DNA from: Candidatus Omnitrophota bacterium
GTDB lineage: Bacteria; Omnitrophota; Gorgyraeia; Zapsychrales; JBDRMG01
NCBI GenBank assembly: GCA_043812495.1
Contig: JBDRMG010000066.1
Span: 1-53,986 of the forward strand
Length of the DNA stretch: 53,986 nucleotides
Direction of reading: 5' to 3'
The number at the start of each line of letters is the position of its first letter. Positions within the stretch are counted from its first letter, which is position 1. Shown one piece after another: positions 12,001-18,000 of the stretch. Made by a program: the position numbers.

Positions 12001-15000
12001 TTCGCCGAAGGCGAAATGTCGGAACCTTTAACACTCATGTACCAGCCCAATCAATAGATGAAAATCAAGCTGCAAAGGTAGCTCAAGAAATTATTCATCT
12101 TTGCGAGCGAACGCATCAGTTAAAAGACGAAATAGCTCATGGACAAATGACCATCAGTGAATGGGAACCATGGGGCAACTTTGATCCCGACGATATTCAG
12201 CGGTTAGTTAACCAAGGAGTCTGTCTTCAACTTTGCCAAGTTCCCGTTAAAGAATTAGAGAAATTACCGGAAGATATTGCGTTGGAAGTTTTGTTTGTCA
12301 AAGCAGGGCTGATTTACGGCGTTCTTGTTTCAAGGAACATGTTTGATATTCCGGATGAATTCATGGCCAAGGTTTTGTCGCTTCCTTCCATGAGCCTCCA
12401 TCAAATGAAAGCTAAGAAACAAAAATTGGAATCGGAACTTTCGGACATAAATGATCAGATAAGAAAGTTAGTTTGCCATGAAAAGGCCTTGCGCAGAACT
12501 TATCAGGACAAGCTTCTCGCGCTGCGTTATCATGAAGCTTTAGCCGGGATGAAAAAAGAAGAGAGCCTGACATGTTTAAAAGGGTTCTGCCCGCAAGGCC
12601 GATGCCATCAACTTCAAGCCTTGGCCGACCGGCAAAAATGGGCTCTTTTGATTCAAGATCCATTGGACGATGACAGTGTCCCCACGTTTTTAAAAAATCC
12701 CCGGTGGGTTGAAATGATCAAGCCGGTCTTCAGTCTCATGAATATCCTGCCTGGCTATCGGGAAGTGGATATCAGCTTACTATTCCTTCTGTTTTTCTCG
12801 GTATTTTTTGGCATGCTCATTGGCGACGCGGGTTACGGCGCGATCTTTCTTATTATGACTTTTCTAGGGCAGAAAAAATGGTCTAAACATATTCAGAACC
12901 CAGCTCTTTTTGTCTTGATGTATGTTCTTGGTATCTTTACGGTTGTTTGGGGAGTTTTCACAGGAACATTTTTTGGGCAAATTTGGTTACCGTCGAGCGT
13001 ACAGCCGCTTTTTCCCGGACTGCGAAACAATGAAAATATCCAGGCTTTGTGTTTTTTGATCGGGGGGATCCACTTAAGCATTGCCCATATTTGGCGCGGA
13101 CTGATGAAGATGCCTTCGTTGGCGGCTTTGGCCGAGATAGGTTGGCTATCCTTATTGTGGGGCATGTTTTTTCTAGCCAAATTTCTGATTTTAAGTCATC
13201 CTTTTCCTTCATTTGGTTTGGGATTGATTATCACCGGTCCGATTCTGGTTATCTTTTTTAGCCAGCCCAAGAAAAACATGATGAAAACAATTAGCTTGGG
13301 ATTGGGTGATTTTCTTGTGAATTTAACAAATACATTTACCGACCTTGTGTCCTATATCAGGCTTTTTGCGGTTGGACTGGCTTCTGTGGCTGTGGCGGAT
13401 GCTTTTAACCAAATAGCTATGGATATGGGGATGAACACTCTATGGACGAGTCTCGTTGCTGCGCTTGTTTTAGTATTTGGCCATTTGCTGAACATTGTTT
13501 TAGGACTCATGGCTGTCTTAGTCCATGGAGTTCGTTTGAATGTCCTTGAATTTTCTAGCCATCTCAAAATGGAATGGACTGGCTTTAAATATGATCCGCT
13601 CAGAAGAACAGACGACATCAACCTTTAAAAAGGCCGCCCTCAAACCATAGGTTCGAGGGCGAGCCTCGTCATTTTTTCAAGACAAAAATGACGAAAAATG
13701 ACAGGAGAACATGCGATGGACAATGCTTTGTTAATGCAGCTTAAAGACTTGGGCATGGCTGGGGCCTTAGCTTTTTCAGCCATAGGATCGGCCTTAGGAA
13801 CAGGCGTGGCTGGCATGGCTGCTGTGGGAGCATGGAAAAAGGCTTTTGCTCAGAGTAAGACCGCGCCTTTTGTTTTAACTGTGTTCGTGGGTGCACCCTT
13901 GACCCAAACTATTTATGGCATGATTGTTATGAATACGCTGATTAGCAGTGTAGCCAATGGTAGTTATTTCTGGGGAGCCGGGATTTTTAGCGGTTTGGCC
14001 ATGGGCACATCCGCGTGGATGCAGGGAAAGGCCGGTGCGGCCGCGGCCGATGCCATGGGGGAAACAGGAAAAGGATTTGGTAATTACCTGATTGTTTTGG
14101 GCGTGATTGAAACCGTGGCCCTTTTTGTCATGGTTTTTATCATGATGGGCGTAGGGAAAATCACTGGATAAATATTAGATGGACGAATAGCTCAGCTGGT
14201 TAGAGCACCTGACTTACATTCAGGGGGTCGAAGGTTCAAATCCTTCTTCGTCCACCAAGAAATTTTAATTAAGAAAAGGCGGGAGAGTCCTTCATCGTCC
14301 ACCAAAAATTTAGTTTAGAAAAAGCGGGAAGTCCTTCATCGCCCATTAAATGACCCCGCCGCCCCGCTAAAGCGGGGCGAGAGGCGGGGGAATTTACTCC
14401 GAGCCCGCCTATGAATCAATGGCGGGCGAGGAGAAAACAAATTTCTCTTTACAAAAAGAGTATTCCATATTAAACTTGAGTCCAAAATTAGTTGACATAG
14501 GGCCCGTGGTGTAGCTTGGTTAACATATCTGCTTGTCACGCAGAAGATCGCGAGTCCCGACACTCGTCCCGCCGAAGGCGGAACTCGGTCGGGATGCCGA
14601 CCGGAGTGAAACGAAGTGTCGGCATTCGAATCTCGTCGGATTAAGATACAGCTGTTGTAAAAGTTGACTTAGAGGCTTTATGGCTTACGTTTATGTTCTG
14701 GAAAGTGAGAGAGTTAAACAGTTTTATATTGGAAGTACGGATAGTTTAGAAGATAGGCTGAAGAGGCACAATCAGGGATACGAGAAAGCAACTAAGCCAT
14801 ATCGGCCTTTTAAAATTGTCTTTAAGCAGAAATGTTTGAATATGGAACAAGCAAGAATTCTCGAACGTAAAATAAAGAAGTGGAAACGAAGAGATTTTAT
14901 TTTAAAGATTATAAATAGCGGCGTTGTCTATTAACTTTTTGATTTCCGTATTTATTCTTGGGCCCGTGGTGTAGCTTGGTTAACATATCTGCTTGTCACG

Positions 15001-18000
15001 CAGAAGATCGCGAGTTCGAATCTCGTCGGGCCCGCCAGTCTTCGCCCCGCCTCTTGCATTTCGCAAGAATGCGGCGGGGCTACGCCTGGCTCCAAAAAAG
15101 AGCCAGGCTTTATTATTTAGAGATCCGGCGAAGCTCAACGCGAAAGCCTTTGAGCGAAGCCGGACTCGTCGGGCCCGCCAAATAAAAAATCCTGCAAAAG
15201 CAGGATTTTTTATTTGGCGAGGCTCGCCCATCAATCCGCCGAAGGCGGATTGATGTGGCGGCCCGCTATAAATAAACGCCGTAAACAACTTACGGCGTTT
15301 TTCTTTTATATTAGATTTCTTGATTCTGATTCTGCTTCGCTGCAAAGTTTTCACGTTGCAGCTTCGCAGAATGGATCCACTCAAAATTATGAAAAAACAA
15401 ACTGCGGATTTACCACGGGATCCATTTACACACCCAAAAGGGCTCGGAGGGTCGTTCGGGCCGTTTCCATAATGCCTTTTGATTTATTACGGAGGTTATC
15501 ATATTCATTGCTGAACACGGTATATTGTTCTCCGAAATCTTTATCGCTTGCGCTGTTCTTCTTTTTTGGTTCCTTGATCTCCCTCCATAACAAAGAAAGC
15601 ATTCTTTCAATTCTCTCGATTTGGTCAATACATGATCTGTAATCCCTGAATGACTTATTGTCAGTCAAGCTTCCCAAAGGAGATACGGAGATATGATATT
15701 TCCATTTTGCTTCATCAAAATTCCAGGACTTGATGAGAAAATTGAGAGTCTGTTCATAAGCAAAATTTCTGTTATTGATGAGAAGATCGCGCAAAACAGA
15801 TGTTTTGATATTCAGAAATTCGGATCTCGATCGATGAAGAGGCAAGGACCTTATGCTTTTTGAGATCTCAGGAAACCAGTTCGCGAGAAGCGGATAGGAG
15901 CCATACGTATCGACCAGGCTTTTCGCGCTGTACTTGTCCCCTGTCCCAAAATCTCCTATGGCAAGATCTGAACCTGTTGTTTCAATAAAGCCTCCGAGAT
16001 TGTCATAGAATTCGACATCCTCATTCACATAATCAAGATCACCCGGCAAAAGGACAATTCTTTCCGCTTCAGGATAATGGTCAAGCACATGACCCCAACC
16101 GGCAAGCCATGTCTGGCATGTATCCACAGACCAGGTTTGTACAACCTCAAGGGTCTTGTATCTCTCATCCTTTATAAAAGAAGCGGCATTCTGCCTTAAA
16201 ACCGTAAATTTGGGTAAGACAACAATCGGCTTGGGATCAATTTGCTTACACCTTTCAACGGTCCACCAGAAGTACCATTCACACTGTTTATTATTCTCAT
16301 ACCCCAGGTAGGGAAAGATAATCACCGGTTTGGAATTTATGCTTTTATGATTGGATTGTTTAGCCATATGTTATCTCGATCCATGATACCCCTTCGACTC
16401 AGTCGCCCTTTCGGGTTCCTTCGCTCAGGGTTAAATAAATATGGGCAATCTGCCCATATTTATTTAAGCTTTTCCTCGTCTCTCTTCCAGCTGCTTACGA
16501 ATGTCATAGGCCTTATCTTCTGAGATGTCAAAGGTCATAATGAGAAAAATAGCAGCGGCAGAGGTTAAGATCGGAATACCGATATCAAAAATTCTCATCC
16601 ACAATAAAGTTCCGGGTACCTGGCCAAGGCCTAATTCCTGGTGAAAACCGGTCGCATTGAGGAGGAATCCGGAGATCAGCGATGTAACGGCAAGCCCAAG
16701 TTTGACCATCCACCAGTAAACAGCACCAAACATACCTTCCCGGCGTGTGCCGGTTTGAAGTTCGTCAAGGTCACAAACATCAGCGACCATGGAATTGGCC
16801 AACGTGAATAGCGATCCTAAGCCAAACGCTATGAAAGGAGCAGCGATCAAAAGTAAATAAGGCTGATCAGGATTATATCCTATCCATTTCAAGGCGTAAC
16901 CAATAATGGAAAGGGAAATAGCAATGAGAAAGGTTCTTCGCTTTCCTATCTTTGTGGAGATCCAAGTGACTAAGAAGATGACTCCGAAAGTACAAGCGGA
17001 ACTCACTGATCCAAAAACACCGAGCAGTGTTCCCCCTTTCTGATACATCATGTCCATTGTGCTCTCGCCACCATGAACATAAAAGAAAATCACATAGGCG
17101 GAGAAGGCGGAGGCCAGCATGAATCCGTTGAAGATCAAGAATGTTGCGGCACAAACCTTAACAAACGGACGATTTGTGAAAGTAATGGCAACACCCTTAA
17201 AGAAGTCTCTGAGAGTACCCGGAATACCCTTTTCTTTTTTGGGTCTTGGTAAGTTGCCGAAATGCTCTTTGTTAAAAATAGCCGGAAGGATACCGCCAAT
17301 CACAATAAAGCCACCGATGAGGAGTGCGAGGATACGTGCTCCATGAACCATATCTGCAAAAAACTTTCTGTTCATAAACCAGAAAAACCAGGGAGCGATC
17401 AGCCAGGCAAATTGAGCGACAAAGTTGCTGACCCCCTGCAGTCGTGTTCGCTCATGATAATCAGGTGTCATTTCATATCCGAGCGCGATCCAGGGGATTG
17501 AATAACAGGTGAATGCAACGAAAAAGAGAATCTGGAATCCTAAGAAATACCAGAAATAGTAACTTTCGCTTTGTCCCTTATGGAGTTGGAACATGAGTGC
17601 ATATAAAATACCTGAAGCAATAGATCCAAAGAATATGAAAGGCCTGCGGCGTCCGTAGCGGGTCCGGGCGTTATCTGAACTGTAACCGATGATGGGATCT
17701 AATACGGCATCGACAATACGGGGAATCATTCCGATGAGACCGACGACAGCGGGATTCACGCCTAACCCGAGGTTTAACACAATGACCATCGCTCCAATCG
17801 CGGCGGCCTGAATGCTGTTCACGAGCGATCCTATACTGTATATGGCTTTCTGAAAAAGTGGAATGCGGTCTTCGCGGGCTGTCTTATGGTGGGTTGGTTG
17901 ATTAATTGTTTGTCCCATGAACTACCTCCTTCAATGAGCGCTTAATTTATGGAGTTCCGCCAACGGCGGAATGACGTAAATTAGAAGCGCGAATTGAACC

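Follow-up and report, generated by a model that had tools for sequence, protein, structure and literature searches.

The locus studied here raises the question of why a small stand-alone GIY-YIG nuclease gene should lie between two copies of a tRNA gene. It belongs to a 53,986-nt stretch of a Candidatus Omnitrophota assembly, which is called the window below. The initial annotation had grouped this gene with others in the genome as homing-type mobile cassettes that target tRNA genes and leave a whole tRNA behind.

Layout of the tRNA-Val/tRNA-Asp locus

The upstream neighbour on the forward strand is a whole tRNA-Val(UAC) gene (14181..14257), followed on the same strand by a tRNA-Val 3' fragment (bases 61-77, one mismatch; 14288..14304). 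Two GC-rich hairpins of the CCCGCC type (14347..14433; z -6.3 for 14330-14440) separate Val from a putative Asp promoter, read from the sequence as TTTACA-17 nt-TAAACT (14448..14476, forward strand), which is also found directly 5' of the intact tRNA-Asp gene in the same-family genome G001 (locus L082). The upstream Asp copy had been described as a plain 5' fragment; instead, it can be seen that bases 1-55, in their ancestral position (14500..14554), are followed at the T-loop by a 70-nt double hairpin (14555..14624; TCCCGAC..GTCGGGA, then TGCCGAC..GTCGGCA) and then by bases 56-70 (14625..14639), all on the forward strand. The double hairpin scored z -4.4 over 14556-14624 and was matched by 0 of 200 shuffles, and its insertion produced no target duplication.

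The sole ORF between the two Asp copies is the forward-strand gene for the 84-aa GIY-YIG nuclease (14680..14934; PF01541, E 1.9e-16). It is followed by a whole tRNA-Asp(GUC) (14960..15037, forward strand); no second such gene was detected in the assembly. The exact repeat of Asp bases 1-56 (14500-14555 and 14960-15015) was found as previously described, and over bases 1-70 the intact gene and the broken copy are identical. The 3' end of the whole gene adjoins a gene-less triple-hairpin element of the CTTCGC type (15038..15164; z -6.8), of a different family from the hairpin at 14555; ends resembling it flank the GIY-YIG genes of contigs C4, C8 and C57. To the upstream copy already recognised we can add that Asp bases 63-78 recur downstream (15165..15180, forward strand), in their ancestral position before a terminator-like inverted repeat (15176..15219, forward strand), a close counterpart of which lies 3' of the intact tRNA-Asp of G001 (L082). 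An Rfam search near the locus returned tRNA matches only, and a 'COG2827 RNA motif' did not turn up in it.

Small GIY-YIG genes at tRNA genes

The genome gave 16 PF01541 matches, 15 in small genes and one in a 451-aa, UvrC-sized frame. Eleven of the 15 small genes are no more than 500 nt from a whole tRNA or tmRNA, every one on its strand, and a twelfth, on contig C62, lies behind a Pro 5' fragment only, in agreement with the 12 initially counted; the three copies away from any tRNA (C5, C38 and C64) and the two broken ones (C17 and C62) were likewise recovered. The chance of such proximity is 2.4% genome-wide and 11% within intergenic DNA, so that 11 of 15 is far above expectation even against the latter (p 1.6e-15 and p 3e-8, respectively). 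An additional, 16th copy is cut by the end of contig C54 (16194-16242), 3' of a hairpin-broken Glu fragment. An ARAGORN Leu(GAG) call at C16 126175 was judged spurious and dropped from the enrichment and fragment-rate counts, while being kept in one other comparison. With introns and a low threshold ARAGORN gave largely noise, from which the Asn intron alone, confirmed by Rfam, was retained; a 'Glu with intron' at contig C59 failed to reproduce.

In 25 related genomes, 41 of the best-scoring 80 of about 105 small matches are near a tRNA, all 41 on the same strand, and 39 are away from one; that about half of these genes lie elsewhere counts against reading them as tRNA elements. The initial annotation had also held that several cassettes are bracketed by a partial tRNA copy. 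In the relatives, 25 of the 41 tRNA-linked loci have an exact fragment of at least 11 nt (leaving out a 12-nt match internal to the tmRNA of L060). In the present genome an exact own fragment of at least 12 nt accompanies 4 of 12 nuclease-adjacent tRNAs and, at the same rate, 10 of 30 others, which speaks against a strict cassette reading. The Val-CAC and Asn repeats were found in place. Where a Leu-UAA unit had been proposed to run on from C54 into C50, the two contigs share 49 nt; this shared stretch is no more than the repeat unit and therefore does not fix the copy number there.

We rebuilt the comparison of filled and empty Val-Asp sites in an equivalent series, using the best 30 of the 69 genomes with an Asp match. 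The two loci with a nuclease between the tRNAs had gaps of 702 and 1204 nt; of the 23 without one, 22 measured 14-217 nt. Three unrelated nuclease clades occur at tRNA-Asp genes. On contig C54 the halves of a split Cys gene together have the very sequence that G001 has in its intact Cys gene, and the working Cys gene between them has a different acceptor stem; similar splits affect Phe on C10, Val-GAC on C50 (nested twice) and loci L034, L159 and L177. Some inverted-repeat elements hold a whole foreign tRNA. By hand count, the acceptor strand of the fragment equals that of the whole tRNA in about 20 nuclease-bearing 5'-type loci and differs in 5, which makes import of a foreign tRNA the minority case.

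The filled and empty sites, the three clades at tRNA-Asp and the foreign alleles in split genes argue for cassettes that are mobile, target tRNA genes and keep a whole tRNA, as initially proposed. We conclude from these comparisons that the nuclease genes are located at tRNA and tmRNA genes, on their strand, in what look to be selfish, tRNA-lodged cassettes, which occur in several bacterial groups and always leave one intact tRNA. The unit is a hairpin-broken tRNA fragment plus a nuclease gene, beside a whole tRNA; its presence varies among relatives, and it is sometimes in tandem.

The nuclease and its hairpins

The window protein belongs to the GIY-YIG superfamily by its PF01541 match, its catalytic Tyr/Tyr/Arg/His/Glu and its fold; Y5, Y16, G18, R26, H30, E62 and K66 are invariant across 35 relatives. 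The best fold matches of its predicted structure (pLDDT 93) were UPF0213 and Slx1, a branched-DNA nuclease, ahead of I-TevI, with none reaching E 0.001. According to the model the nuclease fold takes up the whole 84-aa chain, without a DNA-binding module.

The Ssn family (cd10448), whose member SsnA is associated with NTS/SRM hairpin repeats, offers a parallel: a hairpin in single-stranded DNA is bound by SsnA, which cuts next to it, and the insertion-sequence-like arrangement of Ssn was pointed out by its authors (Chenal et al. 2025, PMC11893778). The window protein shares with Ssn the single GIY-YIG domain of less than 100 aa (the family limit being 150 aa), a hairpin of its own that flanks the gene, and many gene-less copies of that hairpin. 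However, in the best tree the window clade (100/98), which takes in members from Patescibacteria, Bacteroidota and Ignavibacteriota, is apart from the clade (100/99) with the C64 protein and a Neisseria protein, taken as SsnA from its similarity and SRM flanks; a tree that forces the two together was, however, not rejected (p-AU 0.155, 92 columns). The Ssn C-terminal W..DL extension is missing, and the published degenerate SRM motif was found at 0 of 95 loci, the window locus included, and at 3 of the 4 reference loci (L196-L199) used as a control. The C64-type copies have inverted ends that are SRM-like but longer. All six Ssn-clade copies in these genomes (C64, L032, L035, L036, L058 and L072) are away from tRNAs. 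In a tblastn search of a plasmid collection the C64 protein matched 33 records and the window protein 0. With E 1e-20, too strict a threshold, a protein search across 301 genomes matched the query alone.

A blind hairpin pattern found the window double-hairpin element at 10 sites, spread over 8 of the 301 genomes. Six of the sites are inside tRNA fragments (0 for the reversed control) and four are not, and a nuclease gene adjoins just one; of five hairpin-bearing genomes searched, only G011 has a clear window-clade member, as judged by identity and motif rather than a tree. Locus L104, from another family, encodes a nuclease of the same subclade (64% identity) and carries the same double hairpin, at Asp 41/42 rather than the 55/56 of the window locus, in a fragment that matches its own local allele. 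Across five phyla, nucleases of the window clade are accompanied by hairpins related to this one at tRNAs other than Asp. Hairpin-stem sharing was 0.062 between close nucleases at different tRNAs (31 pairs), 0.020 between distant nucleases at the same tRNA (116 pairs) and 0.019 in the background; a Mantel test across 63 loci gave a rho of -0.14 (0 of 2000 permutations), a small effect among kin that are not independent. We conclude that hairpin type tracks nuclease clade and not target tRNA, each clade having its own hairpin; shared descent can account for part of this agreement.

At each of the ten named loci with a nuclease match (L134, which has none, being excluded) the gene adjoins a tRNA or a tRNA fragment broken by a hairpin, several in tandem, and the cultured, harmless host Algoriphagus confluentis NBRC 111222 has a tandem array. 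On the gene side, the broken tRNA copy usually stops 7-15 nt from the hairpin. Copies of tRNA genes are also broken, without target duplication, by hairpins that lack a gene and by inverted-repeat elements with a whole spare tRNA.

A proposed mechanism and its alternatives

With hairpins that are specific to each clade and numerous copies without a gene, the system resembles Ssn or REP, in which a nuclease is paired with a hairpin. We lean, by a little, towards selfish nuclease-plus-hairpin elements that combine an Ssn-like, hairpin-directed nick with the use of tRNA sequence as a recombination arm. The nuclease gene would be expressed through transcription from the tRNA promoter, and its product, like SsnA, would bind its hairpin in single-stranded DNA and nick a few bases away, within tRNA-derived sequence. 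The nicked end could then pair with a whole tRNA gene, and host recombination would integrate or amplify the unit. We propose that one intact tRNA is always left because the tRNA sequence serves as the homology arm; this would also account for the lack of an integrase and for a clade that spans phyla. As the best tree puts the window protein outside the Ssn clade and its locus lacks an SRM, the Ssn chemistry is borrowed by analogy, and cleavage and movement by the window nuclease are predictions. The model leaves the homology-free insertion of lone hairpins unexplained. It is, by a similarly slight preference, probable that there is a superfamily of such elements, each a bare GIY-YIG gene with its own hairpin type residing at tRNA genes.

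An alternative that we consider unlikely, and less likely than the Ssn-like reading, is classical free-standing homing, in which the nuclease would cut the tRNA gene of an empty allele in double-stranded DNA, donor repair would copy in the gene and a resistant tRNA, and the hairpins would be later litter. The foreign alleles within split resident genes and the recurring break at T55/C56 would fit. However, the donor tRNA is intact and over bases 1-70 does not differ from the broken copy, so that a nuclease recognising tRNA sequence in duplex DNA would also cut at its own locus, and alleles differ in a minority of loci only. A DNA-binding region beyond the catalytic domain is a feature of free-standing homing endonucleases, and this 84-aa protein has none; its modelled fold is closer to Slx1 than to I-TevI, and homing does not predict that each clade should have its own hairpin only a few bases away from where the fragment ends, nor does it account for gene-less copies. 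The label 'homing-type' is not supported in its original form. Endonuclease ORFs of fungal mitochondria also bring a replacement end for the gene they invade, but these are organelle protein genes, the replacement end is divergent (here it is usually identical) and no hairpin partner is known. Almost all characterised GIY-YIG proteins have a DNA-binding region beyond the catalytic domain (PMC11893778). SegB of phages T4 and T6 is a case of such homing: its GIY-YIG gene lies among tRNA genes, and it reads a T-loop motif, spreads with neighbouring tRNAs (PMC2330249) and drives tandem amplification by host or phage recombination (PMC13096335). Unlike the elements here, which are chromosomal, encode 84 aa and form many clades, SegB belongs to phages and cuts double-stranded DNA at a 27-bp site, and the accounts consulted in these two papers mention neither a hairpin partner nor a split tRNA with a replacement part.

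Somewhat less probable still is a passive hotspot, at which REP/PATE-like hairpins moved in trans by Y1 transposases or host enzymes damage and duplicate tRNA genes, and nuclease genes collect through tRNA-promoter expression. REP/REPIN-RAYT and IS200/IS605-derived elements share with ours the paired hairpins, the lack of target duplication and the coexistence of gene-bearing and gene-less copies. In favour of a hotspot, fragments are as frequent without a nuclease gene as with one, most hairpin copies have no adjoining gene, and one of the seven Y1_Tnp matches in the genome has a CCCCGCC hairpin at its end, so Y1 transposases could mobilise some of the hairpins. Against it, the YCCGAC hairpin of the window clade was in 0 of 7 Y1-locus flanks (CCCGCC hairpins in 1 of 7), hairpin type goes with the nuclease clade at differing tRNAs and in differing phyla, tandem units consist of exactly the nuclease gene and broken tRNA, and several nuclease genes stop within the first bases of the tRNA. 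The partner here is a hydrolytic GIY-YIG nuclease and not a Y1 transposase, and tRNA genes are strongly preferred. REP elements are taken up in section 12 of PMC11893778.

Genomic islands at tRNA and tmRNA genes (Islander, PMC4383910) likewise have a whole tRNA and a displaced fragment as brackets, as seen at the window locus, and form tandem arrays. They differ in carrying a tyrosine integrase and in sizes that peak at 13.6 and 39.9 kb (PMC4383910), whereas here a 460-nt unit holds just the 84-aa ORF and the fragment is interrupted by a hairpin; the two PF00589 matches of the genome (C16 53141 and C18 68155) are far from these loci.

A domesticated role, in which the nucleases would protect or reshape tRNA loci, perhaps through restriction of incoming single-stranded DNA in the way that SsnA affects transformation in Neisseria (PMC11893778), is improbable: the invariant catalytic residues would suit such a role, but presence at the same site is patchy, differing clades occupy one tRNA, PF01541 matches vary from 2 to 16 per genome, and copies are broken on C17 and C62. 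False tandem fragments from assembly or binning are highly improbable: two read runs, with 12% and 6% of the words, contain no piece spanning the locus and contigs end at these repeats (C50/C54, C54 end), but inserts and alleles in the fragments differ from the whole gene, and dozens of independent genomes show the same layout, the cultured strain included.

Returning to nuclease-plus-hairpin elements, we found no description of such tRNA-lodged cassettes in the literature searched, which took in few subscription papers. The main text of PMC11893778 does not mention tRNA, and its Ssn sections 8, 10 and 12 describe neither tRNA fragments nor spare tRNAs; in the parts consulted, PMC1564403 lacks a tRNA-linked family and raises the question of whether other GIY-YIG members are parasites. 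The elements offer a role to many of the small UPF0213/Slx1-like GIY-YIG genes that are uncharacterised, a large share of these, and suggest a mobility route independent of a dedicated recombinase and an exchange of tRNA genes, usually held to be stable core genes, for foreign alleles. More tentatively, and with the chances somewhat against it, these may be widespread minimal mobile elements of about 300-500 nt without transposase, integrase or reverse transcriptase, in which conserved tRNA sequence gives a bare hairpin-guided single-strand nuclease a recombination arm that is available everywhere. Such elements would pass between phyla, set hairpins without a gene and carriers of spare tRNAs in motion in trans, and so bring about horizontal replacement of core tRNA alleles, nested older alleles being a layered record. 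Many candidate nuclease/hairpin pairs outside Ssn are supplied, each clade, if the model holds, adding a specificity beyond that family, for which uses as single-stranded DNA tools are envisaged (PMC11893778). Missing or duplicated tRNAs in such assemblies are explained by contigs breaking at these units, and the tandem array of A. confluentis opens the system to direct experiment.

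The tRNA-Asp locus and its counterparts

The genome assembly amounts to 1.94 Mb in 66 contigs, the window being contig C66. As the initial annotation had described, a GIY-YIG gene is found here between two tRNA-Asp copies: it encodes 84 amino acids (C66 14680-14934; PF01541, E 1.9e-16), follows an upstream copy that begins at 14500 and precedes the whole tRNA-Asp at 14960-15037. The upstream copy had, however, been taken for a plain 5' fragment, and the hairpins in it had been overlooked; it consists of Asp bases 1-55, a 70-nt double hairpin (z -4.4) and Asp bases 56-70. When this insert is removed in silico, Asp bases 1-70 are exactly rebuilt, without target duplication. 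On the 3' side of the whole tRNA-Asp there is a second hairpin element lacking a gene, and then a fragment comprising Asp 63-78. The same-family genome G001 has a single intact tRNA-Asp between the same promoter-like sequence and a near-identical terminator. Since both flanks are shared, we conclude that the two Asp fragments of the window are the ends of the ancestral gene and that all between them was added.

The 30 best Asp loci (69 genomes) include 23 with no nuclease gene between tRNA-Val and tRNA-Asp; the gap there was 14-217 nt in 22 and 682 nt in G001. Where a nuclease gene intervened (two loci), the gap measured 702 and 1204 nt. A nuclease gene lay directly at Asp in 3 of these 30 loci and just before Val in 3 more. 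The 682-nt gap of G001 (C7 41130-41800) lacks a GIY-YIG gene; in it are a 3' fragment of Val and, on the opposite strand, a probable small ORF.

The genome was found to contain 15 small PF01541 genes, the number originally claimed, along with one UvrC-sized match. Twelve had been placed near a tRNA, tmRNA or fragment; 11 of the 15 indeed have a whole tRNA or tmRNA no more than 500 nt away on the same strand, and the twelfth (C62) follows nothing but a Pro fragment. The remaining three (C5, C38 and C64) are at no tRNA. Random placement would bring 2.4% of genes this close to a whole tRNA or tmRNA across the genome, or 11% if confined to intergenic DNA, against which 11 of 15 gives p 1.6e-15 and p 3e-8, respectively. 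A wider profile recovered a 16th copy (C54 16100-16242 region), truncated by the contig end, which follows a hairpin-broken Glu fragment that itself comes after a gyrA-like gene; tRNA-Glu(UUC) is absent from the assembly because the end of C54 cuts this unit.

In relatives (the best-scoring 80 of about 105 small matches in 25 genomes), 41 loci had a tRNA or tmRNA within 500 nt, in every case on the strand of the gene (41/41), as did 31 of the 61 loci in which both flanks were complete; an exact fragment of the adjoining tRNA was present in 25 of the 41. Likewise, in all ten named loci where a nuclease matched (eight genomes, belonging to Ignavibacteriota, Patescibacteria, Bacteroidota and Verrucomicrobiota), the gene had a tRNA, or a tRNA fragment broken by a hairpin, next to it. 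Several of these, including that of cultured Algoriphagus confluentis, are tandem units in which a hairpin replaces the anticodon arm, and the nucleases that were put in the tree all fell in the window's clade except an Opitutales protein. We conclude that the cassettes are real and widespread. In Algoriphagus loci L128-L132, tandem arrays consist of the nuclease gene and a tRNA-Ala 3' fragment with a hairpin in place of the anticodon arm, and the contigs end within the arrays.

Split alleles and hairpin types

At C54 396-624 an inverted-repeat element holds a whole tRNA-Cys; bases 1-32 of another Cys allele stand on one side and bases 33-72 on the other. As both halves have exactly the sequence of the intact Cys gene in G001, the resident gene has been split and a foreign spare is now working. 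Halves that pair with each other and differ from the whole gene were also seen at Phe (C10), Val-GAC (C50) and three fetched loci (L034, L159 and L177). In nuclease-bearing loci of the 5' type, the acceptor strand of the fragment matched that of the whole gene in about 20 cases vs 5 by hand count, and local duplication is therefore commoner than import. Layered arrangements can also be seen: at C50 15430-16090 two older alleles, both split and both with inverted ends of their own, enclose tRNA-Val(GAC) one inside the other, and at C51 150-1150 tRNA-Arg(ACG) sits amid stacks of fragments, 5' as well as 3', whose alleles differ and which have hairpin elements between them, resembling a layered insertion record. 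The tRNA-Asn(GUU) at C51 8274-8867 has its anticodon loop occupied by a group I intron (RF00028, 80.6 bits) with an ORF-like stretch bearing HNH-type Cys/His motifs (by eye), and a GIY-YIG cassette lies immediately before this tRNA.

A locus from another family, L104, carries at tRNA-Asp a nuclease from the subclade of the window's; the double hairpin of the window recurs there, inserted at 41/42, and the Asp fragment matches the local allele of L104 itself. Members of the window's clade also occur at Arg, His and Val, with hairpins of the YCCGAC type. Other clades have different hairpins and frequently favour one tRNA and one side of it: CCCCGCC goes with Asp/Glu, a 20-nt palindrome with Leu/Asn, and TCCCGAG/TCCCTCG ends, where the break is at T55/C56, with Leu/Val, while CTTCGC ends stand behind tRNA and tmRNA 3' ends. 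Stem sharing was scored across 63 tRNA-linked loci. Pairs of close nucleases sitting at different tRNAs gave 0.062, pairs of distant nucleases at one and the same tRNA 0.020 and the background 0.019 (Mantel rho -0.14, 0/2000 permutations), an agreement that is partly due to shared descent. The distance from fragment end to hairpin on the gene-facing side was usually 7-15 nt (window 15, L104 9, C51 7, L044 11, L053 12, L059 12 and L075 13).

A proposed mechanism of cassette formation

At the level of sequence, position, strand, presence or absence, tandem units, clade-specific hairpins and allele replacement are established. The window protein is a bare catalytic domain that keeps every active-site residue, and its predicted fold is nearest UPF0213 and Slx1 (no match reaches E 0.001); for these reasons it most likely needs DNA structure to find its site. 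On single-stranded DNA, SsnA binds a hairpin and makes its cut a few bases from it (PMC11893778). By analogy, a window-type nuclease would nick a few bases from its hairpin, within tRNA sequence, and a whole tRNA gene would be the pairing partner of the nicked tRNA-derived end. If fragment and gene then recombined, the order fragment, hairpin, gene, whole tRNA, or its mirror image, would result, and repeated rounds could produce arrays. We lean towards such an Ssn-like, hairpin-directed nick combined with tRNA-sequence recombination.

Homing-type movement had been proposed for these cassettes. The allele swaps are compatible with classical homing, but the target is intact at the donor site, and we consider it unlikely. 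It is also rather doubtful that tRNA genes are simply a passive hotspot for hairpins moved by Y1, although many copies have no gene. When 301 genomes were scanned for the double-hairpin pattern alone, it matched 11 times, at 10 sites spread over 8 genomes (reversed control 0), six of the sites inside tRNA fragments and four elsewhere, and a nuclease gene adjoins it at the window's site only (1/10). Within 500 nt of tRNAs, equal to 2% of the DNA, lie 44 of the 265 GC-rich hairpins of the window's genome (G000), a count that still includes intergenic bias. Fourteen of its 42 tRNA/tmRNA genes have their own fragment nearby, at rates of 4/12 with a nuclease gene vs 10/30 without. T55/C56 inserts occur in fragments of Pro, Met and Thr. 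Of 30 Cys loci, 10 carry fragments, and no nuclease gene lies within 800 nt at any of the ten. One of seven Y1 matches in G000 has a CCCCGCC end, but the window's hairpin was at none of the seven. A host function is improbable, and an artefact scarcely credible.

Relation to known systems and neighbouring elements

The likeness of the hairpin-directed reading to Ssn (SsnA with hairpin repeats) would lie in the working principle of nuclease and hairpin. The best tree separates the window clade from the Ssn clade, and an AU test does not reject joining them (p 0.155); SRM, the Ssn hairpin motif, was absent from the locus in the window. Ssn-clade copies in G000 and relatives (C64 and five more) are in no case near a tRNA. 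Islands integrated in tRNA genes are alike in layout (PMC4383910), but the window unit has no integrase, and SegB is the closest precedent for a nuclease at tRNA genes (PMC2330249, PMC13096335). No description of such cassettes was found in the literature searched, which excluded subscription papers and supplements, and they are apparently undescribed in print; their novelty is the joining of a known nuclease/hairpin principle with replacement of tRNA gene ends.

Several other elements were noted. At C64 52700-53080 the Ssn-clade nuclease lies between inverted SRM-like ends, away from tRNAs. Y1-transposase genes of about 330 aa are found between their own inverted ends at C2 46100-47150, C4 1250-2300 and C45 200-1250, and an end of the C2 element resembles the tmRNA 5' end. 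A repeat of about 110 nt that is common to many contig ends (C5, C22, C31, C39, C45, C49, C57 and C58) is probably an unassembled multi-copy insertion sequence. In the window, a four-helix-bundle gene (23S rRNA IVP, PF05635; 10565-11107) lies within a V-type ATPase operon. Finally, the GIY-YIG gene at C5 24290-24590, before a dapA-like gene, is in the loop of a CCCCACACCAA inverted repeat, which has 15 matches in G000, one of them near a tRNA.
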